DNA of 64,000 bases from Bacillota bacterium (lineage in GTDB: Bacteria; Bacillota; Clostridia; Christensenellales; Pumilibacteraceae). The notes beneath the pieces are model-generated. The model saw only the letters and a list, made by a program, of their open reading frames with translations. It had not been told where the DNA came from and made no database searches. The stretch covers positions 5,840 to 69,839 of the forward strand of contig WRAP01000002.1 of NCBI GenBank assembly GCA_009780135.1. The letters are read 5' to 3'. The position numbers and the translations under genes were made by a program. Shown here piece by piece: positions 2,057 through 58,341 of this stretch (position 1 is the stretch's first letter; each line of letters starts with the position of its first letter).

Positions 2057-2112
2057 AAAAACAGTTGGAACAGAAACTAAAACATTTTAACCAGCTGTAC
2101 GACAGTAAAAAT

Positions 2113-3945
2113 ATGATAAAATTATTAAAAGTATTTAGTAAAAAAGATTTGTTGCTTGTTTTAGTAGCGTTAATCTTGATAGTGTGTAGTGTATGGCTAG
2201 ACCTTAGGGTTCCTGCGTATATGGGTCGTATTACCGGTCTTGTAACAACCGGTATTTATGGCTTTGAGTATGAGTATATACAGGGTTTTGGTAATGTCTT
2301 GGTGCCGATTATGGCTACAGTTAGCGATGTGTGGCGATATGGTGGCATTATTATAGGCTACACTGTGGGTAGCTTAGTTATAAGTATGATAACGACACTA
2401 ATAACGGCTATTTTAGCTAGTAGCTACAGTGCTAAGCTTAGGCAAAAAATATGGCTACAAGTGGGCGACTTTGCAAATGGCGATATTAAAAAGTTTAGTA
2501 TACCGAGCTTAATTGTGCGTTCTACCGGCGATGTTACGCAAGTGCAATTATTGGTAGCATTCGGAATGCAAATTTTAGTGCGTATTCCAATTTTAGTTGT
2601 CTGGACAGTTATCCGAATGACTAGTGTTAGTAGAGAGCTATCTATGATAACTTGGTTAGCGGTAGCAAGCATAATTGTAGTTAGCTTAATAATACTAATA
2701 TTCTGCCTTCCGCAATTTAAGCGTATAAGAGATAACACAGACCTTATGAATAAGTCCGCTAGAGAAAATCTATCGGGTGTTAGAGTTGTTAGGGCATATA
2801 ATGCCGAGAGCTTCGAGGAAGCAAAATTCAAAAAATCTAACGAGAGTTTAACAAAATCTAACCTAACTATGAATAGGGCAATAGGTTTTGCAATGCCGTT
2901 TATAATGCTTGTTATGAGTGCTGTAACGGTAGCGATTTATTGGGTAGGTGCACATTTAATAGATAGTGGAACTGTACCGTATTATCAAAGCGAATATTTC
3001 TTTGCAGACACTATGGTGTTTATGCAGTATGCTTTTCAAATTTTAGGTGCGTTTGTAATGCTTGTGTTTATGCTAACAATGCTACCTGGTATTATTGTTT
3101 CGGGCAGAAGAATTAGCGAGATATTAAAAACAAATTCAAGTATAGATTCCTCTAATAAAAAGCCTATCGGACTAGAAAAAGCATTTGATAGAGAACAAAA
3201 TATTAAATTTGATAAAGTTAGCTTTAGGTATCCAGGGGCAGAAAATGATGTTTTGTTAGATATATCGTTAGAAATCAAAAAGGGTCAAACTGTAGCATTT
3301 ATAGGTAGCACCGGTAGCGGTAAATCTACACTTGTAAATTTAATTCCAAGAATTATGGATGCTACAGAAGGCAGTATTACAATTGGTGGCAAGTGTATAA
3401 AGAATGCACCACTAGAAGAAATTAACGATATTGTTGGTTTTGTTCCGCAAACTGCGATTATATTTAGTGGTACGGTACGAGATAATATTGCCTTAGGTAT
3501 GGTTAAAGGTAAGGAGATAACAGACGAGGCGATAGAGAAAGCACTTAGAATATCGCAAAGTAAGGAGTTTGTAGATGAGTTAGAGGGTAGATTAGAGTTT
3601 GAGGTTAAGCAACGGGGTCGTAACTTTAGTGGCGGTCAAAAGCAAAGACTTAGTATTGCTAGGACAGTGGCGAGAGAGCCTAAAATTTATATCTTTGACG
3701 ATACTTTTAGTGCGCTAGACTATAAAACAGACAAAGAACTAAGAGATGCTTTAAAAGCTGAAACTTCCGATGCTACGGTGCTTATTGTGGCTCAGCGCAT
3801 AGGAACTATTAGAAATGCCGACCAAATTTTTGTATTAGACGAAGGTAGAATTGTAGGCAGAGGCTCACACAACGACTTAATAAAAAATTGCGAGATCTAC
3901 AAGCAAATAGCACTAAGCCAATTGTCAGAGGAGGAAATTGCGTAA
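2113..3945 (+). CDS. ABC exporter permease/ATPase half of a heterodimer, carrying the degenerate ATP site
   Basis: The protein has a six-TM region followed by an NBD. Walker A is GSTGSGKST and the signature is FSGGQKQR. Walker B is IYIFDD, with Asp in place of the catalytic Glu. The start was moved to the internal ATG (MIKLLKVFSKK) because the track ORF overlaps the TetR gene. Confidence 0.85.
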   Translation: MIKLLKVFSKKDLLLVLVALILIVCSVWLDLRVPAYMGRITGLVTTGIYGFEYEYIQGFGNVLVPIMATVSDVWRYGGIIIGYTVGSLVISMITTLITAILASSYSAKLRQKIWLQVGDFANGDIKKFSIPSLIVRSTGDVTQVQLLVAFGMQILVRIPILVVWTVIRMTSVSRELSMITWLAVASIIVVSLIILIFCLPQFKRIRDNTDLMNKSARENLSGVRVVRAYNAESFEEAKFKKSNESLTKSNLTMNRAIGFAMPFIMLVMSAVTVAIYWVGAHLIDSGTVPYYQSEYFFADTMVFMQYAFQILGAFVMLVFMLTMLPGIIVSGRRISEILKTNSSIDSSNKKPIGLEKAFDREQNIKFDKVSFRYPGAENDVLLDISLEIKKGQTVAFIGSTGSGKSTLVNLIPRIMDATEGSITIGGKCIKNAPLEEINDIVGFVPQTAIIFSGTVRDNIALGMVKGKEITDEAIEKALRISQSKEFVDELEGRLEFEVKQRGRNFSGGQKQRLSIARTVAREPKIYIFDDTFSALDYKTDKELRDALKAETSDATVLIVAQRIGTIRNADQIFVLDEGRIVGRGSHNDLIKNCEIYKQIALSQLSEEEIA

Positions 3946-40762: not shown

Positions 40763-40785
40763 TATGAAAAAATATGCACTATTAT
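40763..40785 (+). repeat. attL core, the left copy of a 23-bp direct repeat
   Basis: TATGAAAAAATATGCACTATTAT is identical to 56796-56818. This copy encodes only MKKYALL followed by a stop, so it is a 7-codon stub of purH. Confidence 0.85.
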
Positions 40786-40862: not shown

Positions 40863-40883
40863 ATTTAGTCACAATTTAGTCAC
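40863..40883 (+). repeat. Two direct ATTTAGTCAC copies 11 bp apart, candidate arm-type integrase sites on the left arm
   Basis: ATTTAGTCAC occurs at 40863-40872 and 40874-40883. The same decamer recurs three to four times on the right arm, at 56677-56727. Confidence 0.55.
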
Positions 40884-41989
40884 TAAATTATGTTGTCTAG
40901 CTTGTTTACTATTTCTAATTGCTTATTTGGCATCAAGTGAGCATAGCGATTTAAAGTCATTTTTACATCGGCATGCCCTAATCTTCGAGCAACTGTCAGA
41001 ATATCAGAACCCAAACTAATTAACAAGGAGGCATGTGAATGCCTTAGATCATGCACTCGGATAATTTTTATTTTGGATTTTTTGCAATATCTTCTCATAG
41101 CATCTCTTACCAGTGTTGAATTTAGTGGTTTTAGATTTCCGAATATAAAGTTGTCTTCCGAAAACAAATCAAATTCTCTGTAGTATTCTTTTAACTCACA
41201 TAAAAGAACTTGCAAATCATTCGGCATCAAAATATCTCTATTTGAATAAATGCTTTTAGGCGTAGTGATTTTATAATCGTTTTTTAACGAGTGGTGAAAT
41301 AGTGTTTTTCGAATTTTTACGATATTGCCAACTATGTCTTTCCAAGTTAAAGCAAGGGCTTCGCCTTTTCTACATCCTGTTAAAAATAAAAAACTAAAGA
41401 GCACTTTATACAAGATGCGATCTACGCTATTAATAAATGTTTTGAATTCTTCCGTAGTCCATATTTGTATATCTTTCTTTATTTCTCTGTTTTTGATCAT
41501 AGGTACTTTTTTACAAGGATTAATTTTTATTAAATTGATTCCAATAAGATAATTGAAAAAAGTATTTAATAATTTTTGAATATATTCTTTAGTAGCAAAT
41601 GCCATTTTTAGTCTTTCAACAAACTTGTAGAACTCTAATATATTGTTAGCCCCGATGGTTGGGATTTTTGAACCTTTGAAATGAGGTAAGATATATTTTG
41701 TAAACTTAATTTTTATAGTAATAAATGAACTTTCTTTCATTTCCCTCATAGCATTCATTAAATATCTATTAGCAGCATTTTCAAACAATAGTTCATCATC
41801 GCTGTTTGTCGTGATTTGTATTTCTTCTGGTTTGTAGTTTGCCACAAATGAAACATATTCTAAATTTGCTTCTTGTTTGGTATCAAAACCACTCAACCTT
41901 TTTTGCTTACGAACAGTATGACCAGGCAGGTCAAACACAACAGTCCATTTCTCTTGTCCTTTTTTCCCAATCTTTTTAAATGTTGGCAT
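40883..41989 (-). CDS. int: Tyrosine recombinase / phage-type integrase
   Basis: The catalytic region contains TGCRKGEALAL (Arg I), VHDLRHSHASLL (HxxR) and GHADVKMTLNRYAHL (His and Tyr). The start is at MPTFKKIGKK, preceded by AAGGAGG. Confidence 0.9.
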   Translation of the reverse strand: MPTFKKIGKKGQEKWTVVFDLPGHTVRKQKRLSGFDTKQEANLEYVSFVANYKPEEIQITTNSDDELLFENAANRYLMNAMREMKESSFITIKIKFTKYILPHFKGSKIPTIGANNILEFYKFVERLKMAFATKEYIQKLLNTFFNYLIGINLIKINPCKKVPMIKNREIKKDIQIWTTEEFKTFINSVDRILYKVLFSFLFLTGCRKGEALALTWKDIVGNIVKIRKTLFHHSLKNDYKITTPKSIYSNRDILMPNDLQVLLCELKEYYREFDLFSEDNFIFGNLKPLNSTLVRDAMRRYCKKSKIKIIRVHDLRHSHASLLISLGSDILTVARRLGHADVKMTLNRYAHLMPNKQLEIVNKLDNII

Positions 41990-42404
41990 TTTCAACACAT
42001 CCTCCTTTAAGGTTATGTATTGAATTAAGCCTTTCCACTGCTGCAATTTCTGCAAAAGCAAAGGATTGGATCTCATCGAAATCCCACTTCATATATTCAC
42101 AAAATGACTGCCTTGAAACCCTTCCTTTGACCGGTCTTTTAGATCCTGGTGTCTTAGCTATCTTTTCGTGTATGTTGTTTATAATTTTTGTAGCCCAAGT
42201 TTTACTACAGTCAGTCATAAAACAAATATCATTATAGGTCAGCCCGCCAGGCTTTGTTAAAATACGATACATCGCAATGTTATCGCATCCTAAGTATGGC
42301 ATTTTGCCTATGCAATTTTGTTCATTTGTCTTCACTGTAGTTAAATGGTTTTGATTTTTCGGTGTCCCAATGTGGCTACGTTTTTTAGTTAAGAAGTCCG
42401 CCAT
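41976..42404 (-). CDS. Hypothetical protein, possibly an HTH-type DNA-binding or directionality factor
   Basis: The protein is 142 aa. It overlaps the integrase start by 14 nt. The segment GGLTYNDICFMTDCSKTWATKIINNI looks HTH-like. No family is recognised with confidence. Confidence 0.35.
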   Translation of the reverse strand: MADFLTKKRSHIGTPKNQNHLTTVKTNEQNCIGKMPYLGCDNIAMYRILTKPGGLTYNDICFMTDCSKTWATKIINNIHEKIAKTPGSKRPVKGRVSRQSFCEYMKWDFDEIQSFAFAEIAAVERLNSIHNLKGGCVENANI

Positions 42405-43768: not shown

Positions 43769-44287
43769 CTATATTACTAACAAATGATTTATATGACTAT
43801 TTCCTAAAACAAATTCGCTAACTTCTATTTCCATACTATCTCCGAATTGGTCAAGGATTCCCAAATACTTAAATGTTGTTCTTATATCTGAATGATTGAG
43901 TCTGTACTGCATCGCTACTACAAAATTCATATCAATACTAGACTTAAATGTGCAAGCTGCTATACTAGCAAAACTTTTTCTCATTGTGTGAGAACCAATA
44001 TTAATTGGCAAGTTTAAGGCTTTGCCGGCATCAGAAAGAATTTGCCACCCAGTGGCTGTGTGTATTTTGCCACCCTTCTTTCTGCTGGGAAACAAATAAT
44101 CATCTGCATCAAACTGCCACTTGATTAAATCTAACAGTTTAATTACGGCGAACTTAACAGATTCTGTAATTAAAATACTATTAAGTTTATTATTTTTCTG
44201 CTCAATAATATTTAATCTAGTTCTAAAAGTGTTGTCTGGGTTTAGTAGATGTCTTATTCTTAAAGAACTTAGGTCTGAAAATCTTAT
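43769..44287 (-). pseudogene. 5'-truncated tyrosine recombinase relic
   Basis: The frame is open from the stop at 44288-44290 down to 43769. It reads ...LRIRHLLNPDNTF...IIEQKNNK...YLFPSRKKGGKIHTATGWQIL...HTMRKSFA...LNHSDIRTTFKYLG, which contains Arg I, HxxR and His/Tyr. There is no N-terminal domain, and no ATG or GTG start before the TTG at 44095. Confidence 0.7.
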
Positions 44288-45443: not shown

Positions 45444-45492
45444 AAAAAAATAGCCCCGTGTGGATTTTATTTCCACACGGGGCTATTTTTTT
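45444..45492 (+). terminator. Strong rho-independent, potentially bidirectional terminator
   Basis: AAAAAAA-TAGCCCCGTGTGGA-TTTTATT-TCCACACGGGGCTA-TTTTTTT is a perfect 14-bp stem. Confidence 0.85.
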
Positions 45493-46121: not shown

Positions 46122-46529
46122 ATGAACTCTATGACGGCTGAAGCGGTATCTCGCTTCTATTGTAAGATGAAAATCTTTTCGAATTCTGTATCTCGTGGAA
46201 CGAGGAAGATCTCTAAATTTGCATCAAAGCATTATCTGAAGTGCAAATGGTCTAACATAAGTGCGATCAAAATGCAGTGCATTTTATATGAGACAGAAAA
46301 AATTCACAAAGAAACATTAGCAAAATGTGTAGCCAATGGTTATTTAGTAATCTCCGATAAGGGTGTAGACATTACTAGTAAAGGAATAGGTGAGTTTGAG
46401 ACATATATATCTAAACAAATGAAGGAATCTAATGCTAAACTTGTTGCCACTATAAAAATAGTTACTACCGTTGTGATTATGGCAACGGGTATAGTTGCAG
46501 TTATTATACAAATTCTTGGTTTAATTTGA
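46122..46529 (+). CDS. Tail-anchored membrane protein with a winged-helix-like domain (module gene A)
   Basis: AAAGGAGAAAG is the RBS. The protein is 135 aa. The segment ETLAKCVANGYLVISDKGVDITSKGIGEFE resembles a wHTH wing. A single C-terminal TM segment (IKIVTTVVIMATGIVAVIIQILGLI) ends the protein. Confidence 0.55.
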   Translation: MNSMTAEAVSRFYCKMKIFSNSVSRGTRKISKFASKHYLKCKWSNISAIKMQCILYETEKIHKETLAKCVANGYLVISDKGVDITSKGIGEFETYISKQMKESNAKLVATIKIVTTVVIMATGIVAVIIQILGLI

Positions 46530-46625
46530 TTTGGTTGCAGTTATTTATTAATTTTTAATATAATAGTTGATTAATTGATAGATGTATGTTAAAATATTTG
46601 CATTCATGCTTTGGAGGATTCTAAA

Positions 46626-47210
46626 ATGAGTAGCAGACTTGAGATACAATACATTGATAAAATTATGGTTCTTGGAGCTATAAGAGTTTACTATAGTCAC
46701 TATCGTGCCTATAGTTTAAGTTCAGAACTTGAGTTGATTGGCGAGGCAAGTGAGCAAGAATTAAACGCAGCGCATGAAAGAATAAGGTTAAGAGAATTAG
46801 ATGAAAACAAGATTGCTAAAGAAATAAATGATATAACTAAAACAAGAACGAAAGACGAAGCAGAAGAGGAGATTTTAAATAAAAAAAGAAGAATTTTTGT
46901 ATTGGCGATCAAAGATATTATACATAGACATATTCCAAAATCCAAAGATATACCAGATGCAAATAAAATAAATGCGATAATAGGTGAGTTTCTTTGTTTG
47001 GGCTATATTGAAATAACTGAGTTTAATACATTTTGTTTCAAACTAACTTCGTTGGGCTATGATCATATTGAAAAGTGTGAAAAAGAAATTTTTGAAAAAG
47101 ATGAGCGTCTCAAAAAAATAAAAATTATATTACTTTCAACTATATTACCATTCGTAGGCGTTGTTATAGCTATAGCTACACCTATCATAATACAAATGAT
47201 TTCATGTTAA
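46626..47210 (+). CDS. Tail-anchored membrane protein with a winged-helix-like domain (module gene B, an architectural paralogue of A)
   Basis: A GGAGG sequence lies upstream of ATG 46626. The protein is 194 aa. The segment IIGEFLCLGYIEITEFNTFCFKLTSLGYDHIE is followed by a helix and a C-terminal TM segment (IKIILLSTILPFVGVVIAIATPIIIQMISC). Confidence 0.55.
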   Translation: MSSRLEIQYIDKIMVLGAIRVYYSHYRAYSLSSELELIGEASEQELNAAHERIRLRELDENKIAKEINDITKTRTKDEAEEEILNKKRRIFVLAIKDIIHRHIPKSKDIPDANKINAIIGEFLCLGYIEITEFNTFCFKLTSLGYDHIEKCEKEIFEKDERLKKIKIILLSTILPFVGVVIAIATPIIIQMISC

Positions 47211-47369: not shown

Positions 47370-47560
47370 ATCATTTATTATTAACCAATCTATTGTAATT
47401 AAATCTACAAAAAAGCATATTCGTTTAGATAGTTATTCTATATATTATGATTTAGTTTGTCGAAATATGTATATATTGCAAATATAAGATATCATACACT
47501 AAAAATTGTTTTTATTTTATAGTTATTTTGTGGTACAATTCTTTTGTAGGAGATATTATT

Positions 47561-49069
47561 GTGTTAAAGCTTTTCATCGGTTCAACAGTAGAGGCACTTA
47601 AATACGCAGAAGCCTTGCAGTCAATTCTTGTGCATGATTTTGAGGTAACGATTTGGAATCAAGGTGTGTTTACTCCAGGTTATTCTAATCTCGAAAGTTT
47701 AGTGAGTGCAATTTATGGATTTGATTGTGCTATTTTTTTCTTCACATGCGATGATGTTGTTGCTAAACGAGACAACATACAAAACTCTGTAAGAGATAAT
47801 ATTTTATTTGAATATGGGCTGTTTATGGGTGCACTGGGAAGAGACAGAGTATGGTTCGCTTATGATTTGAATGATGATGTGTCAAACTTGCCCACTGATA
47901 TAGCAGGAGTATGTCCTATGCCTTTTCATTCACATAATAAAAATATTTCTAGCGCGGTTGGTGTTATAGCGACAAATATAAAGCAGAGAGCAGCTTCGTT
48001 TTCTATCAATATTAAAGAGTTCGAAAAGTTAGAAAATGATAAAGATTATAAGAAGTTTATTGAAAGAAAAAATGAATTTTTATTTTATATTAAAAAATTC
48101 ATATCCAAACCAAAGAAAAATGTATTGCTTAATGATTCATTAAAAGATGAAATATATTTTGCAATAGCAGTAGATGTAGATAAGTTTGAAGCCATCAACA
48201 GAATGTACGGAGTCAATACTGGTGATGCAATAATAACTGAGTTAAAAAAGATCTTTAACGAGAGGATGAGATTTTTAAAATGCACCGATATTTTGACGCA
48301 ATGTTTTATTGAATATCATATTGATTTGTTGGACAATGATGAGTTTTTTATAATTTTAAAATTTAATATATCTCAAGAGCCAAAAATAGCTTCATATCGA
48401 ATAGCAGAAAATACATATGAACGCTCAATGACTTTGACCGAAGATTATAATAGGCTTTTAGCTCAACTTAAATCCAATACAAATGAAGATATATGTGAAA
48501 AACCTACAACAAAACATTTAAAGCGCAACTGGGAAGCTCATGGCATATTAGAAGAAATGAATGCTTTTTTGTGCAATGTCATAAATAAGGTCGTCAATAT
48601 AAAAGATGGCGAAATAAAAGATTCAGTACAACACCTAAAAGATTTACTAGAAAAAGCAATGTGTTCTGCTGTGCCTGAGTTGATTGATAAAACTAAAAGC
48701 TATGAAACTTTTTTATTTCATAGTTTAGAATCTATTTATAATCAACGAACTCAAGAGTTATTTGATCTAGTAAAGTCTGTGGCTGACGATTTGATTGGTT
48801 CAGTAGCAAAGTATGACTGGGATCAATATGCAAAAGATTTATATGTAACTTGCTCTAGTGGAATAGCATTAAAAAATGATGATGAGCCCGTAGAGAAATG
48901 GTTATCACGCTCGTTACATGGTGTTAAAATTGCAAAAAAAAATGGAGGAAACCAAACAGAGAGAGCTCCTGTTGAACTTGCATACAACCAGGTTTACACT
49001 TTGGAAAACCATAGTAGTGATTCTAGCTATGTAAGTAAGAGGTTTGTAAGAAACAAAATGAGATTATAA
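47561..49069 (+). CDS. Fusion protein with an N-terminal TIR-like domain (PF10137/COG4271 type) and a C-terminal divergent GGDEF/palm-cyclase-like domain (module gene C)
   Basis: An AGGAG sequence lies 8 nt upstream of GTG 47561. The TIR-like block reads LFIGSTVEALKYAEALQSIL...FDCAIFFFTCDDVV...VRDNILFEYGLFMGALGRDRVWFAY...LPTDIAGV. The GGDEF-like blocks read AIAVDVDKFEAINRMYGVNTGD, LLDNDEFFIIL and VTCSSGIA...HGVKIAKKNGGN. Confidence 0.7.
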   Translation: MLKLFIGSTVEALKYAEALQSILVHDFEVTIWNQGVFTPGYSNLESLVSAIYGFDCAIFFFTCDDVVAKRDNIQNSVRDNILFEYGLFMGALGRDRVWFAYDLNDDVSNLPTDIAGVCPMPFHSHNKNISSAVGVIATNIKQRAASFSINIKEFEKLENDKDYKKFIERKNEFLFYIKKFISKPKKNVLLNDSLKDEIYFAIAVDVDKFEAINRMYGVNTGDAIITELKKIFNERMRFLKCTDILTQCFIEYHIDLLDNDEFFIILKFNISQEPKIASYRIAENTYERSMTLTEDYNRLLAQLKSNTNEDICEKPTTKHLKRNWEAHGILEEMNAFLCNVINKVVNIKDGEIKDSVQHLKDLLEKAMCSAVPELIDKTKSYETFLFHSLESIYNQRTQELFDLVKSVADDLIGSVAKYDWDQYAKDLYVTCSSGIALKNDDEPVEKWLSRSLHGVKIAKKNGGNQTERAPVELAYNQVYTLENHSSDSSYVSKRFVRNKMRL

Positions 49070-49215: not shown

Positions 49216-49243
49216 TTGACAAATGATTTCTCTGTGTTATAAT
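49216..49243 (+). promoter_or_regulatory. Promoter of the Rhs toxin gene
   Basis: TTGACA at 49216-49221 is followed by a 16-nt spacer and an extended -10, TGTTATAAT, at 49235-49243. It lies ~50 nt upstream of the ATG. Confidence 0.6.
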
Positions 49244-49291
49244 GCTTCTATAAACTCCGCAGAAAGTTGCGGTATAAAAGGAGAAAATATT

Positions 49292-52200
49292 ATGAATACA
49301 AAAGGAAAATCTATTAAGACACAAAGAAGTGTTTATAGGTCTATTATCGCAATACTGATGTCTGCTATTTTGGCATTTGTATTTATGAGCGATACAACTA
49401 GAGCGGTTATTGCTTTAGATCGTGATATAGTAGAAGACGAATTTTTTTGTCGAATATCACATCAAGCACAATTATACCGAGATGAAGTATCTCGTAGACT
49501 AGAAGCAGAGAGTGAAGAAGATCCACATATATTGTTAGAAGATATATCAAGGCGCACTAGCTTTGAACGATATTTCTTTATGAGTGATGGTTCAGTTATG
49601 AGAGAGGAATTTATCGAGCCTATTCACTTTGCTTACGATGAGTATATTTATAGACAAATAGATAACTCCTTTGTAGCAAGATCTGACGAGCGCGGGAACA
49701 GCACGATTGTTAATAGAAGCAATGCTTTTCAGACAGAATTTGCAGTAAATCCAAATGATAATTTGCCACTAGCAGCTATAACAAGCGGTGAACATAGTTT
49801 GCAATTTTTCTCTGCTACTCAAGGCTATACATTAGAAAGACAAAGAACACAAGAAGTGCAAAGAGAAAGTCAATTAGAAAACTCTGAAAGGCAGTCAGAT
49901 AACTTTGTAACCAACGAAATAACTGAAAGGCGAGAATTATCTAATGTCGAAGTAGAGTCTAAATTTATGACAAGCGATGAAGTAACGCTTGATTACGATT
50001 ACAGCAGAGAACGCCGCACTAGTAGTGTTGTAACAGGTAATTTAACAAGTGAACTAAGTTTTTCTAATATAGAACCAAATATAGATAGACGCTTTGAAGT
50101 AACTCAATTTGGAATGAGTGAAAATATAATTATTAACGAAAGGCAAAGGCGATTACAATTTGCATTTGAGTTTGTAATTAGAGCCGAAGGATTGGAGTTA
50201 GTAAATTCTAATAATAGGATTTTAGCATATGACTATATGATGGAAAGAATATTCTATATTCCTACGCCATATATGTTTGATGCTTATGGATATTACAATA
50301 CTTCCGATGTTGTTTATAATTTAGAATATCTTGGCGACTACGAATATAGATTTATAATTACAGCTTGTTCTATGTGGATTAACGCTACCGATAGAGCTTT
50401 TCCAGTACAGATTAGTTCTATGAATGTGCAACCATTGAATGGAATTGTAAATTTTCCTAATTCAAATTTTACTATTATACGAATAAGCGAATTTGATGAC
50501 AGGCGAACAGGTATAGATAATCATGATATTCGTCATAGCACTTTTTATAATAGGCGACTGATGGTTCAATATAGTGCCGGCTTAGCCGTTAGAGGTAATT
50601 TACTGTTTGACATTCACAATACATCATCTAGTAATCGGCAGACAGTTATAGGCAATAGATTACAATACGGTGTATTAAACAATATAAGATTTCACCAACT
50701 ACCACAATCTCCTAACATTTTTAACAGAGAGTTGTTAGGAAATCAAACGGCATTCAATCAACAAATAGAATTCGTTGGAAGCTATATGGCGGTAGTCTTT
50801 AGGCTTGCGGGTTGGCTTACTAGTGCTAGAGATGTAACCTTTAGAAACTTTAGAATAGTGACCTCTAGTCCAACTAAAACAGGTCAACCTATAAATTTTA
50901 GTGGTGATGATTTTAATGTATCTATTGATTCATTGACTCTTGATCAGCGAGCGATAGTACCTTACTTTATACAGCAAGCACCTATCATGCCAATAGAAGT
51001 ATATGGTGTATTTAATCCAGGTTTTACCGCAAGAAGAAATAGTGTTATTGCAAATAATGTGCCTATCACACAGCTTAGACCCCCGCAAATTACTTCCTAT
51101 GGCTTAGACATGAAGTTAAACTTTGAACAATATATGTTGCGACAGTACCTTGGCGGAAGAGTACATTATATTTACATAGATGCGATGGGTGATTTTCATT
51201 TATTTATGAGATTGCGTGATAAGTTTCCTTCATTATCTTACCGATGTGACAATCTATTTAGGTCGAGTACAACAGATTTAATATACGACGGAGCTTTGCT
51301 ACTTGGTAATGAATTGAATAAAGCAATGTTTAGATTTGATGCACGTGGACGATTAGATAGAATTAGAAATAATAATGGGCAAGCAATTTATATATCTCAT
51401 GACGCTAGTGGTAGAATATCTTCAATTCGAAATTATTTTATTATATCCAATTTTTCATTTATGCCTGATAATAGATTGTTTTCTAGCGTAAATCTTAGAT
51501 ACCATCCTACACATGGTCGATTAAACAATATCGGCTTTTCAGGATTAGAAACTTTAGAAACAACAATTGCTTATCATTCATGCGGAAGAGTGCACAATAT
51601 AAACATACCAAGCAGTGCAAAAAATATCAGCTTAACTTATTCGTTTGGTAACTTGTATCATATTACCAACTCCGCAAATGCTAGAAACGGGTTTCTTTTT
51701 ACTAGAAGCAATAATCTGTGGTGGATTAGAGAGCATCATGAAAACTCTAACTCAAAAATGCGAATTGGTAGAGATGAACCAAATAATAGAACTTTTATAT
51801 ACTCTTATGGGCGTCATAATAATAATTTCCAATATACATTACTATATAGGACTTATCATCGTTTTGATGATAGTAATAGACTTGTAGATATACAAACTCG
51901 AAATGAAGGGCTAGATAACATAAACGCATTAACAAGAGAACATATTACAAAAGAGTTTAGAACATCATCGTATACTTATAACGGTATTTCCACCGGAGGT
52001 AGAACCACAAACATAACACGCCATAATTACCGTATGTCTAATGTAAGTGATACGGGTTCTTGGCAGTATATAAGAACATATACTAATACATCGGGTGCTC
52101 TTATACGAAAAATTGTAAGACAAGATATTATATGCAACTTTACTGGAAACATTTTAGAGCAAACGACTCAGAACATAGATGGCTTTAGAAGAATTACCCA

Positions 52201-55015
52201 AAACATACATCGTGATTTAAGAGAAACTATTACTACAACCTATGTGTATGATAGTAATTCTGCTAGACGCCATATATTAACTCGTATAGATACAGCACAA
52301 ACAAATGTTAGTTTCAATCGAGTTCATCGGACATATTTTAGAGACCATAATAAATGGGGATTTCCTGAAGATATTAGACACGGTGAAGTGGTGGGAGCAG
52401 GTTTTAGAGAGCGAGTTTCTGAAAGTTTTGATTTCGACAACTATGGCAATCTTATAAGCCACACAGACACACATCGTGTAACTCATACCTTTGAGTATGA
52501 TTGGCTTGGAGACACTGGTGATGTTGGTATCAGCACTACAGGTACTCATATGGGTATTATAAATGCCTTTACAGGCAATGAAAAAATAGTATTTAATTAT
52601 GATGACTATATGATAACAAGTATAAGCACTCAAGATATGTCCGGTACAATTAGATATACGCATAACATTAACCAAAGTTTTTCTCAAAACAGCAATAGCG
52701 ATATTTTTACTATGGGGTCTGTAACTCATAGAATAAATTATTCCAATGGTAAAGTAGCAAGTATAGCAAGGAATAATGTAAATATGCTTGAATTTGACTA
52801 TACTCCTAAAGGCGATATAGTCGGAATATCATTTGCAAACAACCAAAGAATGGCATATAGCTATAATGCATTTGGGCAAATGACACAAAAAAGAGCCTAT
52901 ACTAACGGAATGGAAACGCAAAGATTTAACTATGGCTATCATAGAAATGGAGAGCTAGGATGGGTAGATTTTACTAGTTATGGTAGAGGTTGGAGCAATA
53001 TTATTAGAAGCTTTAGAAGAATCAGAGAGAATGTAACTGGAAGAGAAAATGTAAGCGAAGTGGATACTATTGGATTAAGCAAAAGATTTAGAGTAACAAC
53101 TGAGATCAATCCCAACAATGATAGTATTGGCTCTACAAGTGGTTCGTTTGTTCCCGTTGCTATAAATTATCAATTTGATAATAGTGCATCCCGTAGATTT
53201 TCTATTTCAAAAGCTAGACAGGCATTTAATAATTCGATTCTTGTAACTGATGCTCTCTTTACAGCAAATTATACTTTTGATACTTTTGGCAGATTAGATA
53301 CTCATAGAAGGCATGTAACGACAGGTAGTTCACAAGTTGGACAAATAAGAAGTGTCCATTATTTTAATGATCGTGTTGATAGAGTTGTAGATGCTCTTCA
53401 TATAAACACCGTTAGTCAAGGAAGTTTTACTACAACTCTGTGGTACGATACAGCCGGCAACATAAGTCATGCGTTTGGAGGCAGGGTAGATAGGAATATA
53501 GCGTTTGGATATAGGCACGGTAGATTAGAGTGGGAAGAATGGGATTGTGCGGCAACAAACACCCGCAGAAGAATTTATTATAAATACGATGCTAATAATA
53601 ATTTAGCCAGAACCTATGAATATAGGATTATTAGCACCACTCAAAGAACTAGAGTTAACGCCCAGCGATTTAACCATAGTGGCGATAGACTTACTGGCAT
53701 TACAAATACTCATAGAACATATTTAAACAAGACAATCCCTCTCAATTCCTATGATGATTTGGGTAATCCTCTAGTATATGGTAATTGGGATATGGCATGG
53801 GTTAGAGGACGACTACTACACACTATGCGCCCTAGAAACGGTCTGGGGAATAGCTGGGAGTTCAGATATGACGAAAATGGTATTAGGTATCGTAAGATAG
53901 AAAGAAATGCTACTAATACTTTAACACAAAATACAACTGATTTCTTTGTGAATGGCACTCAGATTATAGCAGAACACAGTGGCAGATATGGCTTTATTGA
54001 GTATTTTTACGATACTCAAGGTGTATCTGGAATGCGTGTAAGTGGAGTTTTGTCTAGTAGTAATCCTAATGCAAATCAAATAAACAATCGTAATTTTCTT
54101 TTTTTGCGTGATGTGTTTGGTAATGTTGTAGAGATTAGACGGGATTGTGGACTTCTTGTAGCTAGGTACAGCTACGATGCGTGGGGCAATACTAGCATTG
54201 TATACAATAGATACAACATCGGTCATATGAATCCGTTTAGATATAGGGGTAAGTATATGGATAGAGGCACGGGGCTTTACTATTTACAGACTAGATTTTA
54301 TGACCCTGCCATTAGGCGATTTATAAATGCCGATAATTTTATGCTTGTGCCGCATTTGGCACAGAGTATGGAGCTAAATATGCACGCTTATGCTAGGAAT
54401 AATCCTGTTATGTTTACAGACCCTACCGGGCAGTTGGCTATTTCGACATTATTTTTAATTGGAATGGGCGTAGGATTTGCTCTTGGATTCGGTGGAAGTG
54501 TTGTTGTTCAGGGGCTAACAAAAGGATGGGATAGTATATGTTTTTGGACGGCAGGAATAGCTGGCGTGACAGGTGCAATAGGTGGCGGGCTTATGATGAC
54601 AGGACTAGGGGCTGGATGGATGGCACTAGCAATGGCAGGGTTAAGCGGAGTTAATAATGTAGGAAGTCAGCTTCTTTCAGATAAAGATTTTAATGTATGG
54701 CAATTGTTATTTTCCATGGCAGCAGGTGGTGCAGTTGGATGGCTAGGTGGCAGTGGGGTCTTTGCAAAAAAACCGGTTATACAGGCAGCCAACAAACTAG
54801 CCAACCAAAAGAAAAATACTGCAAATGTAATGGCAAATTTAGCTATGAAGAAAAAGCCAGGAACTGCTGCGGCCAAAACAAATTGGTGGCTAAATCTTAG
54901 AACAACACAATTTAATAACGCAGTAACAAGTGCTTTTGGACAGAGTGTGCTACAAAAAACAGGAGCTTCAGCATTTGGATGGGGAGCCAACATAGCGTTT
55001 GGTCATTTAGCATAG
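49292..55015 (+). CDS. Rhs/YD-repeat polymorphic toxin with an N-terminal signal/anchor sequence and a glycine-zipper membrane C-terminal domain
   Basis: The RBS AAAGGAG precedes the start MNTKGKSIK. A hydrophobic signal segment (IIAILMSAILAFVFM) follows. Many YD-type repeats are present (YxYDxxGN/R-like: YSYNAFGQM, WYDTAGNI, YKYDANNNL, YSYDAWGN). The Rhs core end reads PFRYRGKYMDRGTGLYYLQTRFYDPAIRRFINAD...NNPVMFTDPTGQ. Confidence 0.9.
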   Translation: MNTKGKSIKTQRSVYRSIIAILMSAILAFVFMSDTTRAVIALDRDIVEDEFFCRISHQAQLYRDEVSRRLEAESEEDPHILLEDISRRTSFERYFFMSDGSVMREEFIEPIHFAYDEYIYRQIDNSFVARSDERGNSTIVNRSNAFQTEFAVNPNDNLPLAAITSGEHSLQFFSATQGYTLERQRTQEVQRESQLENSERQSDNFVTNEITERRELSNVEVESKFMTSDEVTLDYDYSRERRTSSVVTGNLTSELSFSNIEPNIDRRFEVTQFGMSENIIINERQRRLQFAFEFVIRAEGLELVNSNNRILAYDYMMERIFYIPTPYMFDAYGYYNTSDVVYNLEYLGDYEYRFIITACSMWINATDRAFPVQISSMNVQPLNGIVNFPNSNFTIIRISEFDDRRTGIDNHDIRHSTFYNRRLMVQYSAGLAVRGNLLFDIHNTSSSNRQTVIGNRLQYGVLNNIRFHQLPQSPNIFNRELLGNQTAFNQQIEFVGSYMAVVFRLAGWLTSARDVTFRNFRIVTSSPTKTGQPINFSGDDFNVSIDSLTLDQRAIVPYFIQQAPIMPIEVYGVFNPGFTARRNSVIANNVPITQLRPPQITSYGLDMKLNFEQYMLRQYLGGRVHYIYIDAMGDFHLFMRLRDKFPSLSYRCDNLFRSSTTDLIYDGALLLGNELNKAMFRFDARGRLDRIRNNNGQAIYISHDASGRISSIRNYFIISNFSFMPDNRLFSSVNLRYHPTHGRLNNIGFSGLETLETTIAYHSCGRVHNINIPSSAKNISLTYSFGNLYHITNSANARNGFLFTRSNNLWWIREHHENSNSKMRIGRDEPNNRTFIYSYGRHNNNFQYTLLYRTYHRFDDSNRLVDIQTRNEGLDNINALTREHITKEFRTSSYTYNGISTGGRTTNITRHNYRMSNVSDTGSWQYIRTYTNTSGALIRKIVRQDIICNFTGNILEQTTQNIDGFRRITQNIHRDLRETITTTYVYDSNSARRHILTRIDTAQTNVSFNRVHRTYFRDHNKWGFPEDIRHGEVVGAGFRERVSESFDFDNYGNLISHTDTHRVTHTFEYDWLGDTGDVGISTTGTHMGIINAFTGNEKIVFNYDDYMITSISTQDMSGTIRYTHNINQSFSQNSNSDIFTMGSVTHRINYSNGKVASIARNNVNMLEFDYTPKGDIVGISFANNQRMAYSYNAFGQMTQKRAYTNGMETQRFNYGYHRNGELGWVDFTSYGRGWSNIIRSFRRIRENVTGRENVSEVDTIGLSKRFRVTTEINPNNDSIGSTSGSFVPVAINYQFDNSASRRFSISKARQAFNNSILVTDALFTANYTFDTFGRLDTHRRHVTTGSSQVGQIRSVHYFNDRVDRVVDALHINTVSQGSFTTTLWYDTAGNISHAFGGRVDRNIAFGYRHGRLEWEEWDCAATNTRRRIYYKYDANNNLARTYEYRIISTTQRTRVNAQRFNHSGDRLTGITNTHRTYLNKTIPLNSYDDLGNPLVYGNWDMAWVRGRLLHTMRPRNGLGNSWEFRYDENGIRYRKIERNATNTLTQNTTDFFVNGTQIIAEHSGRYGFIEYFYDTQGVSGMRVSGVLSSSNPNANQINNRNFLFLRDVFGNVVEIRRDCGLLVARYSYDAWGNTSIVYNRYNIGHMNPFRYRGKYMDRGTGLYYLQTRFYDPAIRRFINADNFMLVPHLAQSMELNMHAYARNNPVMFTDPTGQLAISTLFLIGMGVGFALGFGGSVVVQGLTKGWDSICFWTAGIAGVTGAIGGGLMMTGLGAGWMALAMAGLSGVNNVGSQLLSDKDFNVWQLLFSMAAGGAVGWLGGSGVFAKKPVIQAANKLANQKKNTANVMANLAMKKKPGTAAAKTNWWLNLRTTQFNNAVTSAFGQSVLQKTGASAFGWGANIAFGHLA

Positions 55016-55027
55016 GGGGGTATATTG

Positions 55028-55585
55028 ATGAGTATGATAACAACATATACGCTTTTGTCAATGAGTAACCAAATGCCTGCCACCATGACATCAATAATTA
55101 TCACCTCTGTTATTGCTGCAATAATAATGATTGGCTTAATTATATTTTGCATTGTGCAACATAAACGGGTGAGGAGTTCAACATATCCATCATTTCGACA
55201 TAATTTTGAAAGCTATCTTATGGTAGCTACTACAGCGATGTTTCTAGGTTTTGTTATATTGTTTTTTTGCCTAGCTTATGCAGATAATGAAACTGCAACA
55301 TGGTTATCTTTTGTACTTTTTGTTTTAGTGGCTGTAATATCGATATTAGTGACTATAGGAACAAATCTTTTTCGCTTCACATTCTATGAAACCGAGATTC
55401 ACTGGCGTACCTACTTTGGAAAAAAAAGAATCTACACATACAAAGATATTGCAGATTGTTTTAGTGGATATAAACGCGCATTTCTGTTTATCCAAATAGA
55501 GTTTAAGGACGGCAAGAAAAAAGATTTGCGAGCAACAAAAAGACTTGTCGCAGCACTAGAGGATAAAAAAATTAAAATTAGATAA
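55028..55585 (+). CDS. Putative cognate immunity protein, a polytopic membrane protein
   Basis: The gene starts 10 nt after the rhs stop and is preceded by AGGGGGG. Three TM segments are followed by a small cytosolic domain (WRTYFGKKRIYTYKDIADCFSGYKRAFLFIQIEFKDGKKK). Confidence 0.6.
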   Translation: MSMITTYTLLSMSNQMPATMTSIIITSVIAAIIMIGLIIFCIVQHKRVRSSTYPSFRHNFESYLMVATTAMFLGFVILFFCLAYADNETATWLSFVLFVLVAVISILVTIGTNLFRFTFYETEIHWRTYFGKKRIYTYKDIADCFSGYKRAFLFIQIEFKDGKKKDLRATKRLVAALEDKKIKIR

Positions 55586-55660
55586 TCATAAAAATTATAA
55601 CCTAACTCACCACCCTAGCGGCGTTAAAAGATACATCTCATAAGAGTGGGAGGTAAAATT

Positions 55661-56227
55661 ATGAATACACCATTGTATATTAATGATAACATTTCTTCGA
55701 TAACTCCTGTGATAATTATACTTATAGTGGTAGGGAGTATAATCACATTAGGACTTATTCTTCTTATTGTTTATCAATCTAAATCATGCAGAAATAAAGA
55801 AAAACCATCTTTTATGCATTTTGGTTCTGTTATTGTTGCAATAATTACACAGGCTGGACTTCAGGCACCTGCAATTGCTGTTGTTTATTTTCTGGATATA
55901 ACTAATGAGCTTCCATCATTTTTTGTTTTTTTTGTTTTTTGCACTTATGTCAATAGTGGCAACATTAGGTGCTTTTAGCACAAATATATACAAAGTTACT
56001 TTTTAGAAGAGGAAATACATTGGAGAGGTCATTTGGGCAAAAAACGAGTTTACACATACAAAGACATAACCGATTGTTTTTATGGTTATAAAAGCGGAGT
56101 ATTGTTTGTACAAATAGAGTTTGCCGGAAAGAAAAAGGTGGAGTTAATGGCTGCTAAAAGACTTATTGCTGTGTTAAGAGAAAAAAAGATAAAGAAAATA
56201 AACTTACCAACATTTGCTAAACACTAA
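55661..56227 (+). pseudogene. Decayed paralogue of the immunity-like gene
   Basis: Track ORFs 55646-55978 and 56033-56227 together cover one homologue of the 55028 gene. Compare GKKRVYTYKDITDCFYGYKSGVLFVQIEFAGKKK with GKKRIYTYKDIADCFSGYKRAFLFIQIEFKDGKKK. The paralogue is broken by a frame change in a T-run near 55920-55945. A TAG also replaces the Tyr of FTFYETEIHWR. Confidence 0.7.
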
Positions 56228-56795: not shown

Positions 56796-56818
56796 TATGA
56801 AAAAATATGCACTATTAT
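56796..56818 (+). repeat. attR core, the right copy of the 23-bp direct repeat
   Basis: This copy is identical to 40763-40785. It contains the start codon and first seven codons of the intact purH. Confidence 0.85.
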
Positions 56819-58341
56819 CAGTTAGCAATAAAACAGGAATTGTAGAATTTGCAAGTGAGTTAGTTAAATTAGGCTACTCAATTTTAAGTACTGGCGGTAC
56901 GGCAAAAACGCTAATTGAGAATAAAATCTCGTGCCAAGAAGTCAGTGACTTAACAGGCTTTCCTGAATGTCTAGATGGCAGAGTTAAAACTCTTCATCCA
57001 AAAATTCATGGCGGAATTTTGGCCCTTAGAGATAATCCGTCTCATATGGAGCAAATTAGAAATCTCGGAATCGACATCATTGACATTGTAGCCGTTAATC
57101 TTTATCCATTTAGACAAACAATTCTCAAAGAAGATTGTAGCTTTGATTTAGCAGTAGAAAATATCGACATCGGTGGTCCAAGTATGATAAGGGCGGCCGC
57201 TAAAAACTATGGCGGAGTTGCAGTGCTAGTTGAGCATAGCGATTACGATGGCGTGATTGCCGAAATTAAATCAAAAGGCGAAGTTAGCTTAAAAACTAAA
57301 AAAGAGCTTATGGCAAAGGCATTTAGGCACACTGCTAACTACGACAGTCTTATTGCTAACTATTTAGCTACAGCTACATATGAGGTTTTTCCTAGCGATT
57401 TATCTATTCCATTCTCACTTGTAACAGAGTTGCGTTATGGTGAAAATCCACACCAAAAAGCAGCATTTTATCAGGATTTAATTCCGCGAAAAAACTCGCT
57501 TTCTACTGCACTTCAGCTAAACGGCAAGGAACTTTCGTATAACAATATCGGCGATGCGGCAGCGGCGTTAGAGTTGCTAAATGAGTTTAACGAGTGTGCA
57601 TGTGTGGCTGTAAAACACGCTAGCCCTTGCGGTGTGACAATGGGTAAAAATTCGTTAGAGGCTTATATTTCAGTTTATAACGCTGATCCAGTTTCAATTT
57701 TTGGCGGAATAGTTGTTTTTAATAGAGAAGTTTGCGAAAAAACGGCGAGTAAGCTAAACGAGATTTTTTTAGAAATAGTCATTGCTCCTAGTTATAATAA
57801 AGTTGCTTTAGAAATTTTAAAACAAAAGCCTAACCTTAGAGTTTTACTTATTAAAGGGTTAGAAAATCAAGTTGAATTTAGTAAAGTATTAGAGAAAAAA
57901 TATGTTTATGGTGGGCTTTTAGTGCAAGAAAAGGATGCGTCATTATATAACGAAAACGAATTAAAATTTGTTACAGAGGTTAAGCCGACTAAAGAGCAAT
58001 TAGAGCAGTTAAAATTTGCTTATAAAGTTGTTAAACATACTAAAAGTAACGCAATTGTTGTAGCAAGAGAGGGAAGTGCAATTGGCATAGCCGGCGGTCA
58101 GACTAACAGAATATGGGCATGCAAGCAAGCATTAGAAAGGGCAGACGATAGGGCAAACGGAGCGGTTTTAGCAAGTGATGCGTTTTTCCCGTTTAACGAT
58201 TGTGTGGAGGTAGCTGTACAAGCTGGTATCAAAGCAATAATTCAACCCGGTGGCAGTATAAAAGACCAAGACAGCATAGACCTTTGTAATAAACACGCTA
58301 TAGCAATGGTTTTATGTGGCGAGAGGCATTTTAAACACTAA
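56797..58341 (+). CDS. purH: Bifunctional AICAR transformylase / IMP cyclohydrolase
   Basis: MKKYALLSVSNKTGIVEFA, LSTGGTAK, GRVKTLHPKIHGGIL and the C-terminal QPGGSIKD are present. The protein is 514 aa. Confidence 0.95.
   Translation: MKKYALLSVSNKTGIVEFASELVKLGYSILSTGGTAKTLIENKISCQEVSDLTGFPECLDGRVKTLHPKIHGGILALRDNPSHMEQIRNLGIDIIDIVAVNLYPFRQTILKEDCSFDLAVENIDIGGPSMIRAAAKNYGGVAVLVEHSDYDGVIAEIKSKGEVSLKTKKELMAKAFRHTANYDSLIANYLATATYEVFPSDLSIPFSLVTELRYGENPHQKAAFYQDLIPRKNSLSTALQLNGKELSYNNIGDAAAALELLNEFNECACVAVKHASPCGVTMGKNSLEAYISVYNADPVSIFGGIVVFNREVCEKTASKLNEIFLEIVIAPSYNKVALEILKQKPNLRVLLIKGLENQVEFSKVLEKKYVYGGLLVQEKDASLYNENELKFVTEVKPTKEQLEQLKFAYKVVKHTKSNAIVVAREGSAIGIAGGQTNRIWACKQALERADDRANGAVLASDAFFPFNDCVEVAVQAGIKAIIQPGGSIKDQDSIDLCNKHAIAMVLCGERHFKH

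Follow-up and report, generated by a model that had tools for sequence, protein, structure and literature searches.

A TIR domain joined to a GGDEF-like palm in one protein, a candidate immune gene on an integrative island of a Clostridia bacterium

What might a bacterial cell do with a protein that places a TIR domain of the NAD+-hydrolysing kind in front of a GGDEF-like palm, the fold of the diguanylate cyclases, and that has no partner gene? The question is raised by the gene at 47561-49069 (+) in a 64,000-nucleotide stretch of contig WRAP01000002.1 (assembly GCA_009780135.1, positions 5,840 to 69,839 of the forward strand) from a Bacillota bacterium of the Pumilibacteraceae. This whole stretch is referred to below as the window, and positions are counted within it. 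A first-pass annotation, made from the sequence, had read the product as a TIR-like domain fused to a divergent GGDEF or palm-cyclase domain and as a candidate nucleotide-signalling defence protein. Our own tentative reading, which comes close to an even chance without quite reaching it, is that of a one-protein abortive-infection NAD+ hydrolase (NADase) in which the palm is a guanine-nucleotide-binding switch that controls assembly of the TIR domains.

The TIR half and the GGDEF-like palm

The open reading frame (ORF) can start at 47528 (TTG) or 47561 (GTG) and ends at 49069 on the forward strand. A Shine-Dalgarno AGGAG at 47548-47552 lies 8 nt 5' of the GTG, and the 502-residue product of this start is the database protein P0001 (NCBI/ENA), annotated 'MAG: nucleotide-binding protein [Firmicutes bacterium]'. 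In this form the gene is complete, with 502 codons and a stop, and encodes in turn a TIR domain, a linker, a palm split into two halves and a basic tail. Residue numbers follow this version; those of the first-pass annotation, based on the 513-residue TTG version, are higher by 11, and its E95, D216/D218 and D271/E272 are E84, D205/D207 and D260/E261 here. With 129 aligned sequences as input, AlphaFold2 gave a model whose mean predicted local distance difference test score (pLDDT) is 82, with the TIR domain and the palm core above 90.

The domain matches of the protein are far above chance. Residues 1-125 (47561-47935, +) form a TIR domain of the Cap12/PycTIR type, as seen from PF10137, from alignment with 9lmq and 7un8, and from Foldseek. 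PF10137 matches residues 3-122 with E = 2.3e-26 and 92.6 bits, against a cut-off of 24.7, over profile positions 1-117 of 119, which bears out the TIR-like N-terminus proposed at first pass. The N-terminus is also matched by the PADLOC models for the 'Effector TIR' of cyclic oligonucleotide-based antiphage signalling systems (CBASS; 6e-36) and for PycTIR (8e-24). Sequence matches in the PDB are to the Cap12 TIR-STING proteins (9lmq, 2.8e-22; 7un8, 4.5e-13), to PycTIR (8jsj, 1.4e-9) and, weakly, to the GGDEF domain of DosC, with 45-50% identity to the Cap12 TIR over ∼120 residues. By fold, the first ∼148 residues match TIR-STING in the PDB with E = 7e-11 and 35% identity (Foldseek).

The NADase pocket of SfSTING is formed by F6, W33, F37 and L47 together with S10, R78, N80 and the catalytic E84, and is completed by D110 from the partner TIR (PMC9402430). 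In the alignment with 7un8 the equivalent residues of the window protein are F5, T9, W32, F37, L47, R78, N80, E84 and D113. The conserved Glu that had been singled out earlier occupies the catalytic position in this alignment; its codon (47810-47812) lies within the block RDNILFEYGLF, encoded at 47792-47824. All of the NADase-pocket residues, the trans-acting Asp included, are invariant across the four-member family described below. These residues make it almost certain that the TIR half is a Cap12-type NADase. Because the pocket is completed in trans, activity would need TIR-TIR assembly, and this assembly must be controlled; the palm is the sole candidate for that role.

The palm is encoded in two stretches. 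Its N-terminal half (residues 196-275, 48146-48385, +) contains D205-x-D207-x-F-E-x-x-N213...G221-D222 and the hairpin D258-N-D260-E261-F262, and its C-terminal half (residues 407-486, 48779-49018, +) contains W420, LYVTCSSG (427-434), R450, AK459KNGGN464 and AP470, with S486 as its last residue. The translations place DVDKFEAINRMYGVNTGD at 48173-48226, DNDEF at 48332-48346 and AKKNGGN near the C-terminus. PF00990 also matches in two stretches (37.2 bits against a cut-off of 23.8, E = 3.2e-9), the best of them being residues 196-288. By fold, the palm is matched by PleD, DgcR, WspR and DosC with E = 3e-8 to 1e-3 and template modelling (TM) scores of ∼0.7 on isolated GGDEF domains. The GGDEF-like C-terminal half with its D205/D207 pair, as recognised at first pass, is thus supported by both Pfam and Foldseek. 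The profile searches gave what that annotation expected, PF10137 at the N-terminus and PF00990 at the C-terminus; comparison of the model by fold gave TIR-STING for the first part and GGDEF cyclases for the rest. REC-GGDEF cyclases are matched by Foldseek along the entire protein as well (∼480-500 columns); with a root-mean-square deviation (rmsd) of 14-22 Å, these alignments reflect domain order only.

For PleD we take D327, E370 and E371 to be the metal ligands, N335 and D344 the guanine contacts, and R366, K442 and R446 the contacts to phosphate or product. The window palm keeps the metal ligands (D205/D207, D260 and E261) and the guanine contacts (N213 and D222). Of the phosphate/product contacts it retains only the Lys, K459, the R366 position being Leu or His and the R446 position Gly. 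A GG[DE]EF signature with both glycines is not found; the window protein has DNDEF, an oddity already noticed at first pass and evident in the translation, and its relatives have FSDEF, YSDEF or SGDEF. Nor is there an RxxD I-site five residues upstream of the signature in the window palm. Since the residues for Mg2+ (D205, D207, D260, E261), for guanine (N213, D222) and for the triphosphate (K459) are kept, the palm most likely binds GTP or another guanine nucleotide. The protein belongs to the GGDEF fold family, but it lacks the GG pair that defines the signature and several of the contacts to substrate, and it is not to be classed as a diguanylate cyclase.

The TIR domain and the palm are connected by a helical linker (residues 126-195, 47936-48145, +), for which AlphaFold2 predicts helices over residues 129-149 and 157-182, with hinges of low confidence at 151-158 and 187-191. 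A rigid stalk like that of WspR was considered and rejected, on account of the disordered hinges in both AlphaFold models and the large whole-length rmsd.

The halves of the palm are separated by a lineage-specific helical insertion of ∼130 residues in the α3 region (residues 276-406, 48386-48778, +). F262 and S432 are 170 residues apart, whereas the equivalent distance is 46 in P0003 and P0004, which are short homologues, and the insertion is predicted to be helical at low to moderate confidence (pLDDT 42-80), in good accord with the ∼125-residue helical insertion postulated at first pass. It has no counterpart in P0003, P0004 or P0034 and is present in P0002. The identity of P0001 to P0002 ranges from 72% in the TIR domain to 23% in the insertion, with 51% in the linker and, for the two halves of the palm, 39% and 51%; the insertion is the fastest-diverging segment of the protein. 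A rapidly changing surface of this kind, present in part of the family, is what might be seen if the palm were a pseudo-enzyme that senses a phage protein through the insertion or, elsewhere, through other surfaces, and in response frees or seeds the assembly of TIR domains, with nucleotides as merely structural cofactors, and the single-protein NADase defences SEFIR, DSR1 and DSR2 do sense phage by a C-terminal domain. The insertion is no general sensor, however, since it is missing from the short forms and throughout the wider group, and the strong conservation of Mg and guanine ligands would be unnecessary in a pseudo-enzyme. We regard this explanation as quite improbable.

Relatives of the protein and of its palm

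Homologues were sought among 5.8 billion clusters, with a profile search that was exhaustive over 1.84 billion representatives. Both halves of the window protein are shared by four clusters: P0001 itself, P0002 (531 residues, 46% identity, insertion present), and P0003 and P0004 (367 and 370 residues, insertion absent). A profile search with the C-terminal half added only the fragment P0033 and P0034, a short form of 369 residues. DxDxFExxNRxxG, CSxG and AKxxGGN are invariant in this family; its signature is DNDEF, FSDEF, YSDEF or SGDEF, with only D-E-F-F fixed.

The next-best profile matches, with E values from 7e-23 to 1.4e-8, define a wider group of at least 146 representatives (P0035-P0180); library-wide, 86 proteins match at E≤1e-10 and 827 at E≤1e-3. 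The GGDEF domain is present in all but two of the 146, and the C-terminal half of the palm is the best-scoring profile stretch in every group match. Assigned N-termini are TIR_2 (52), TIR (29), Cap12-TIR (12), ThsB_TIR (9), CHAT (8), SEFIR (3) and EAD11 (3), together with EAD7, caspase, PNP and a lipase-like hydrolase; many of the remaining representatives are fragments. P0075 combines a cold-shock domain (CSD) and an HNH-type CBASS-like endonuclease, as identified by PADLOC, with the same palm. The effector range of the group is that of CBASS, Pycsar and type III CRISPR, with the palm at the position of their sensor domain. The conflict or defence role suggested at first pass gains support from these fusions of the palm to TIR, SEFIR, CHAT, caspase, HNH and PNP partners.

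The palms of the group share a distinctive pattern. Over 152 family and group proteins, DxD is found in 148, the equivalent of N335 in 143, the Asp at the third motif position in 145 (∼97% for the Asp triad) and the equivalent of K442 in 144. The D344 equivalent is Asp in 111 and Asn in 29 of the 152, and the fourth motif position is Glu in 62, Thr in 53, Gln in 21 and Ser in 8, that is, Glu in 41% and T/Q/S in 54%. Other hallmarks are a near-invariant Trp (148/152), L-x-V-T-x-S-x-G, an Arg (143/152), AK, GGN, G/A-P and R-x-G-x-D-x-F; the 152 show no RxxD I-site consensus. The window protein has the full palm pattern, DxD...N...G(D/N), xxD(E/T/Q)F, W...L.VT.S.G, R...AK..GGN...(G/A)P. The 146 representatives are not ordinary signalling cyclases. 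A word-index search with a 33-sequence palm alignment led mainly to ordinary cyclases, of the REC-, PAS- and GAF-GGDEF types, without reaching the TIR-fused group; it confirms only that the palm is homologous to true GGDEF domains. In the model of a canonical member, P0047 (mean pLDDT 89.8), the palm superimposes on active diguanylate cyclases with TM scores of 0.81-0.85 and rmsd of 2.1-2.7 Å, and the TIR domain on SfSTING at 1.9 Å.

These features bear directly on whether the palm makes a signal, as the first-pass annotation had supposed. The palm might dimerise on infection and make a cyclic di- or oligonucleotide or some other GTP product, which would activate its own TIR domain, those of adjacent copies of the protein, or a receptor encoded elsewhere. 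In favour of this, conservation across the wider group reaches 94-97% for the Asp triad, for the residues that specify the base and for the Lys that contacts phosphate, the fold is nearest to that of active diguanylate cyclases, and every other nucleotide-cyclase fold is already known in immunity, where the mCpol of Panoptes is active without most of the GGDEF motif. Against a synthase stand the DNDEF, FSDEF, YSDEF and SGDEF signatures, the frequent T/Q/S at the fourth position and the Gly at the R446 equivalent, together with the lack of any recognisable product-receptor domain or RxxD consensus; a synthase fused to its effector would also lose the amplification logic of the known signalling systems. 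With both glycines and the R366 and R446 equivalents lost in the sub-family of the window protein, and Glu at the fourth position in a minority of the wider group, signal generation is not established. Considering these losses and the sensor-domain position of the palm, a nucleotide-binding control domain fits at least as well. We judge a fused synthase and effector to be unlikely; its carboxylate triad, conserved at 97%, is enzyme-like, and it therefore remains a serious rival.

A further hallmark of the wider group is its C-terminus. A C-terminal Ser is found in 115 of the 146 representatives (79%), the number of residues that follow GGN has a sharp peak at 22, and the consensus of the tail is ...S-R-x-[LI]-R-D-[YFH]-[FLY]-S-COOH. 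For P0047 the tail is modelled as irregular coil, yet with a pLDDT of 85-96, and on this high confidence it is predicted to be docked. S486 of the window protein (49016-49018) is in exact register (N464+22), but 16 more residues follow, forming a sub-family-specific basic tail (49019-49066, +; pLDDT <50), so that the protein does not end at a Ser 22 residues after GGN as the group does. Auto-inhibition of the palm or TIR domain, or service as a nucleotidyl acceptor, are speculations as to the role of the Ser tail. They touch on a broader idea, which we hold to be doubtful: that the group would form a class of its own among immune proteins, with nucleotide signalling confined to a single polypeptide, in which an active palm uses GTP in some reaction that is not the classical synthesis of cyclic di-GMP and so licenses assembly of the fused effector, and in which, by the same uncertain reasoning, synthase, receptor and effector would have collapsed into one protein. 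The reaction could be formation of a self-limited ligand that glues palms together, or nucleotidylation at the fixed-length Ser tail.

The family is sparsely distributed. Two peptide patterns from the C-terminal half of the family find no member in GTDB representative genomes, IMG/VR or JGI metagenomes. An alignment of the Cap12-TIR sub-group matched 80 loci through the TIR domain only, none with the group palm at the match (hidden Markov model scan of ORFs). The palm half gave no tblastn match to plasmid or phage records, BFVD fold searches found only separate TIR-like or GGDEF viral proteins, and PHROGs gave only weak matches to families of unknown function. The literature searched, whose coverage did not extend to Burroughs et al. 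(2015, NAR), contains no description of a TIR-GGDEF fusion or of this palm.

The distribution also bears on whether the protein is an ordinary cyclic di-GMP (c-di-GMP) enzyme without an immune role, its TIR-like fold merely replacing the receiver of PleD or WspR. The whole-protein Foldseek alignments with REC-GGDEF cyclases, the JGI label 'diguanylate cyclase (GGDEF)-like protein' carried by group members, and some housekeeping contexts would agree with this. The 14-22 Å rmsd of those alignments does not, and the TIR domain retains every NADase residue, the palm has CHAT, caspase, HNH, PNP and SEFIR partners elsewhere, and the gene lies on an integrase island. The family is, moreover, very patchy, with 4-5 clusters among ∼15 billion proteins and no match to the two peptide patterns in a GTDB representative. 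An enzyme of this ordinary kind is scarcely to be expected.

Besides the window, 15 homologue loci were compared, representing ∼11 distinct contexts. There is no conserved neighbour, and no cyclase or CD-NTase, in these loci or in the window; the gene is solitary. Neighbours include a Schlafen (SLFN)/AlbA_2 ATPase (L003), a TIR_2-TRADD-transmembrane protein (L004), two methyltransferases with a BfiI-like nuclease, a restriction-modification system (L007 and L008), insertion sequence (IS) elements with a large helicase (L009), a TIR-pentapeptide protein with a trypsin-like protease and an IS (L010), and HEPN_AbiU2 at a distance of 6 kb (L091). Many of the homologues lie beside mobile or defence-type genes, and L001, L093 and L095 have housekeeping surroundings. 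The defence-island signal around the relatives is no more than suggestive, and the lack of shared synteny together with the sparse distribution fits a horizontally moving single-gene module rather than a housekeeping regulator.

Two further observations concern these loci. At L095 a 620-residue PF13941 protein ('MutL', actin-like ATPase fold) is encoded at 1692-3554 and ends 16 bp before the TIR_2-GGDEF-like gene, the sole apparent operon partner observed for any group member. In three members that are unrelated to one another, a radical-SAM gene is found no more than a few kb away (L006, 4920-6395; L009, 14654-17101; L010, 12806-14374); their positions and strands differ, and the association may be coincidence.

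The island and its other genes

Outside the island that carries the gene, the window contains housekeeping genes of a spore-forming Firmicute, among them gyrA, recA, RNase Y, metG, GerA and the pur operon. Between purN and purH, a direct repeat that is perfect over 23 nt flanks ∼16 kb at the 5' end of purH (56797-58341; AICARFT_IMPCHas, 1.6e-115). The left att-type core repeat, TATGAAAAAATATGCACTATTAT, lies at 40763-40785 just after purN and retains the native ribosome-binding site of purH, and the right copy at 56796-56818 overlaps the purH ATG. Just inside the left end is a tyrosine integrase (40883-42076, -; PF00589, 3.6e-21, with SAM-like and arm-binding domains). From the repeats and the integrase, the TIR-GGDEF-like gene is cargo of a 16-kb integrative island, and the first-pass view of a mobile island adjoining a toxin locus is upheld by these features and by an RHS-core protein encoded 3' of the gene at 49223-55015. 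As the purH ribosome-binding site stays with the left repeat, purH has a poor one after integration. A truncated second tyrosine integrase at 43769-44095 (-), comprising only the C-terminal catalytic part, hints at a decayed nested element, and a strong terminator is present at 45445-45491.

Two small proteins are encoded directly upstream of the gene (46122-46529 and 46611-47210). Each has a C-terminal transmembrane helix, and they are not paralogues of one another. Neither has a family match in Pfam or PADLOC, the product of 46611-47210 matches only itself among the 5.8 billion clusters, and no comparable pair is found at loci L001-L004 of the three other family clusters. Their membership of the system was rejected on these grounds, and the three-gene unit at 46.0-49.1 kb implied at first pass is unsupported.

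Co-transcription of the gene with the RHS toxin was likewise rejected, because a perfect sigma-70 promoter (49216-49243; 12/12 consensus, with a TG extension) lies between them. The promoter falls within the first codons of the called RHS ORF, whose true start is probably a downstream ATG at ∼49289 (MNTKGK...). The RHS-core protein has 1930 residues, of which the C-terminal 190 are glycine-rich and membrane-like and could be a pore-type toxin tip. Small proteins with several transmembrane segments follow (55025-55585 and 55646-55978), one of them DUF6560, and a 111-nt sequence is repeated at 74% identity (55394-55504 and 56012-56122). Together, the small proteins and the repeat suggest duplicated or orphan immunity genes.

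A candidate switch and its relation to known systems

The tentative reading given at the outset can be stated in steps. The protein would be a self-contained, abortive-infection-type immune protein carried as island cargo. Its N-terminal TIR domain would be the effector, an NAD+ hydrolase active only when TIR domains pack together as in TIR-STING filaments, and its palm a control module that holds a guanine nucleotide. Nucleotide-dependent pairing or unpairing of palms would decide TIR assembly and hence NAD+ depletion. The insertion would be a lineage-specific addition to the switch and may be a surface contacted by a phage component. The identities of the domains, the conserved pocket and metal residues, the solitary gene, the island and the exchange of effectors within the palm group are observed; NADase activity, nucleotide binding, the direction of control from palm to TIR, and the trigger are inferred. 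There are precedents for such control: in Caulobacter PdeA/CC3396 a degenerate GGDEF domain (GEDEF) takes up GTP and acts as an allosteric switch on the enzyme domain beside it, and Gabija is gated by NTP levels. PdeA resembles the window protein in its altered signature, in A-site nucleotide binding and in allosteric control of a fused enzyme, as proposed here; it differs in controlling an EAL phosphodiesterase in housekeeping signalling rather than an immune NADase.

Several observations weigh against the proposed switch. Strict conservation of the metal carboxylates over ∼150 divergent proteins is more enzyme-like than would be needed for pure binding, and loss of the GG pair and of two Arg contacts in the sub-family of the window protein weakens the predicted nucleotide binding. 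No path that couples palm to TIR is seen in the AlphaFold models, whose inter-domain geometry is unreliable (predicted TM score 0.61, disordered hinges). The proposed switch does not account for the Ser tail conserved at the C-terminus in the wider group, and the housekeeping surroundings of L001, L093 and L095 make the contexts only partly defence-like.

Comparison with known proteins places the window protein between several of them. Like Cap12 (TIR-STING; SfSTING 7UN8, 9LMQ), it has an N-terminal PF10137 TIR domain (∼35-50% identity) with an identical NADase pocket, including the partner Asp, and a C-terminal domain tied to guanine-nucleotide chemistry, the STING domain binding c-di-GMP. 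Unlike Cap12, it ends in a GGDEF palm rather than STING and has no adjacent CD-NTase, and it scores 102 bits against a cut-off of 450 with the NCBIfam Cap12 equivalog. PycTIR (8JSJ) of Pycsar, the pyrimidine cyclase system for antiphage resistance, has a TIR domain of the same family fused to a nucleotide-related domain; there, however, the TIR is C-terminal, the sensor binds cyclic nucleoside monophosphates (cNMPs), and a separate PycC cyclase, absent from the window, is needed. With the diguanylate cyclases PleD, WspR, DgcR and DosC the protein shares the fold, the Pfam family, the acidic residues of DxD and of the third and fourth motif positions, the N335, D344 and K442 equivalents and the order of flavodoxin-like N-terminal domain, helices and palm. 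It differs from them in having DN for GG, in loss of the R366 and R446 equivalents, in the lack of an I-site, in the 130-residue insertion, in the group-specific Trp, GGN, GP and Ser tail, and in an NADase N-terminal domain instead of a receiver.

The SEFIR proteins (bSEFIR; Millman et al. 2022) are likewise single-gene products in which a TIR-like NADase at the N-terminus precedes what is presumed to be a sensor, whereas the window protein has a PF10137 TIR domain and no bSEFIR or PF08357 match. P0056 of the wider group, a SEFIR domain followed by a GGDEF-like palm, is called bSEFIR by PADLOC (8.7e-51), the match being to the first 249 residues, and defence-annotation tools therefore probably lump the palm architecture under 'SEFIR'. 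The idea that the validated SEFIR protein shares the palm was rejected, because the palm taken by itself gives no match to the bSEFIR model; that protein probably has a different C-terminal domain. The palm half on its own matches no PADLOC model, even at E≤10, and since PADLOC recognises only the TIR half, the gene is claimed by no named defence system, as had been anticipated.

The palms of Panoptes mCpol and Cas10 are cyclase relatives with a role in immunity, and a degenerate GGDEF motif is tolerated there. Their synthase and effector genes are separate and a dedicated receptor is present; the palm of the window protein is of the diguanylate-cyclase type and is fused. A guard on the Panoptes model may nevertheless be imagined, in which the palm constitutively makes a decoy nucleotide that holds the TIR domain off until it is released by phage sponges or nucleases acting against immune nucleotides. 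Panoptes and Panoptoo do show negative regulation by palm-made or DAC-made nucleotides, and a solitary gene without a sensor would suit such a guard. The lack of an S-2TMbeta, CARF or SAVED partner or of a nucleotide-binding receptor domain does not, nor does a palm that is not mCpol (Cas10 palm2 matches occur in only 4/146 group members), and no CBASS linkage is seen at the loci examined. We consider such a guard very improbable.

The genes that define the known systems were looked for directly. For CBASS, no CD-NTase is present in the window or the homologue loci, and no STING, SAVED or other cyclic-oligonucleotide receptor was found. For Pycsar, neither a PycC cyclase nor a cNMP-binding effector was found in the window. 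For Panoptes, there is no stand-alone mCpol and no S-2TMbeta, CARF-TM or SAVED-TM partner, the nearby transmembrane proteins being without a family match. More generally, the 43 ORFs of the window include no CD-NTase, SMODS, cyclase or other signalling partner. As these partner genes and sensor domains are absent, the gene is not assigned to CBASS, Pycsar, Panoptes, Thoeris or SEFIR. An immune protein that combines an effector with a nucleotide domain is of a kind already known; there is a real chance that the palm chemistry or the Ser tail could be mechanistically new.

To our knowledge, nucleotide-based immunity (CBASS, Pycsar, Thoeris, type III CRISPR and Panoptes) always splits the maker of the signal from its reader. 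Here a palm of the diguanylate-cyclase type is joined to a killing domain with no partner gene, and palms of this type recur with seven or more kinds of effector. If the palm is a sensor, the A-site of GGDEF domains would have been recruited as an immune receptor, which could tie infection to the state of the guanine-nucleotide pool; an enzymatic palm would instead be the first case of a GGDEF domain proper dedicated to immunity and would bring a new activation logic. In either case the system would be compact, a single gene, with at least 146 representatives that are visible to defence-annotation models only through their TIR, SEFIR or CHAT halves. The gene of this bacterium belongs to a wider, apparently unstudied family of what are likely one-protein anti-virus genes.

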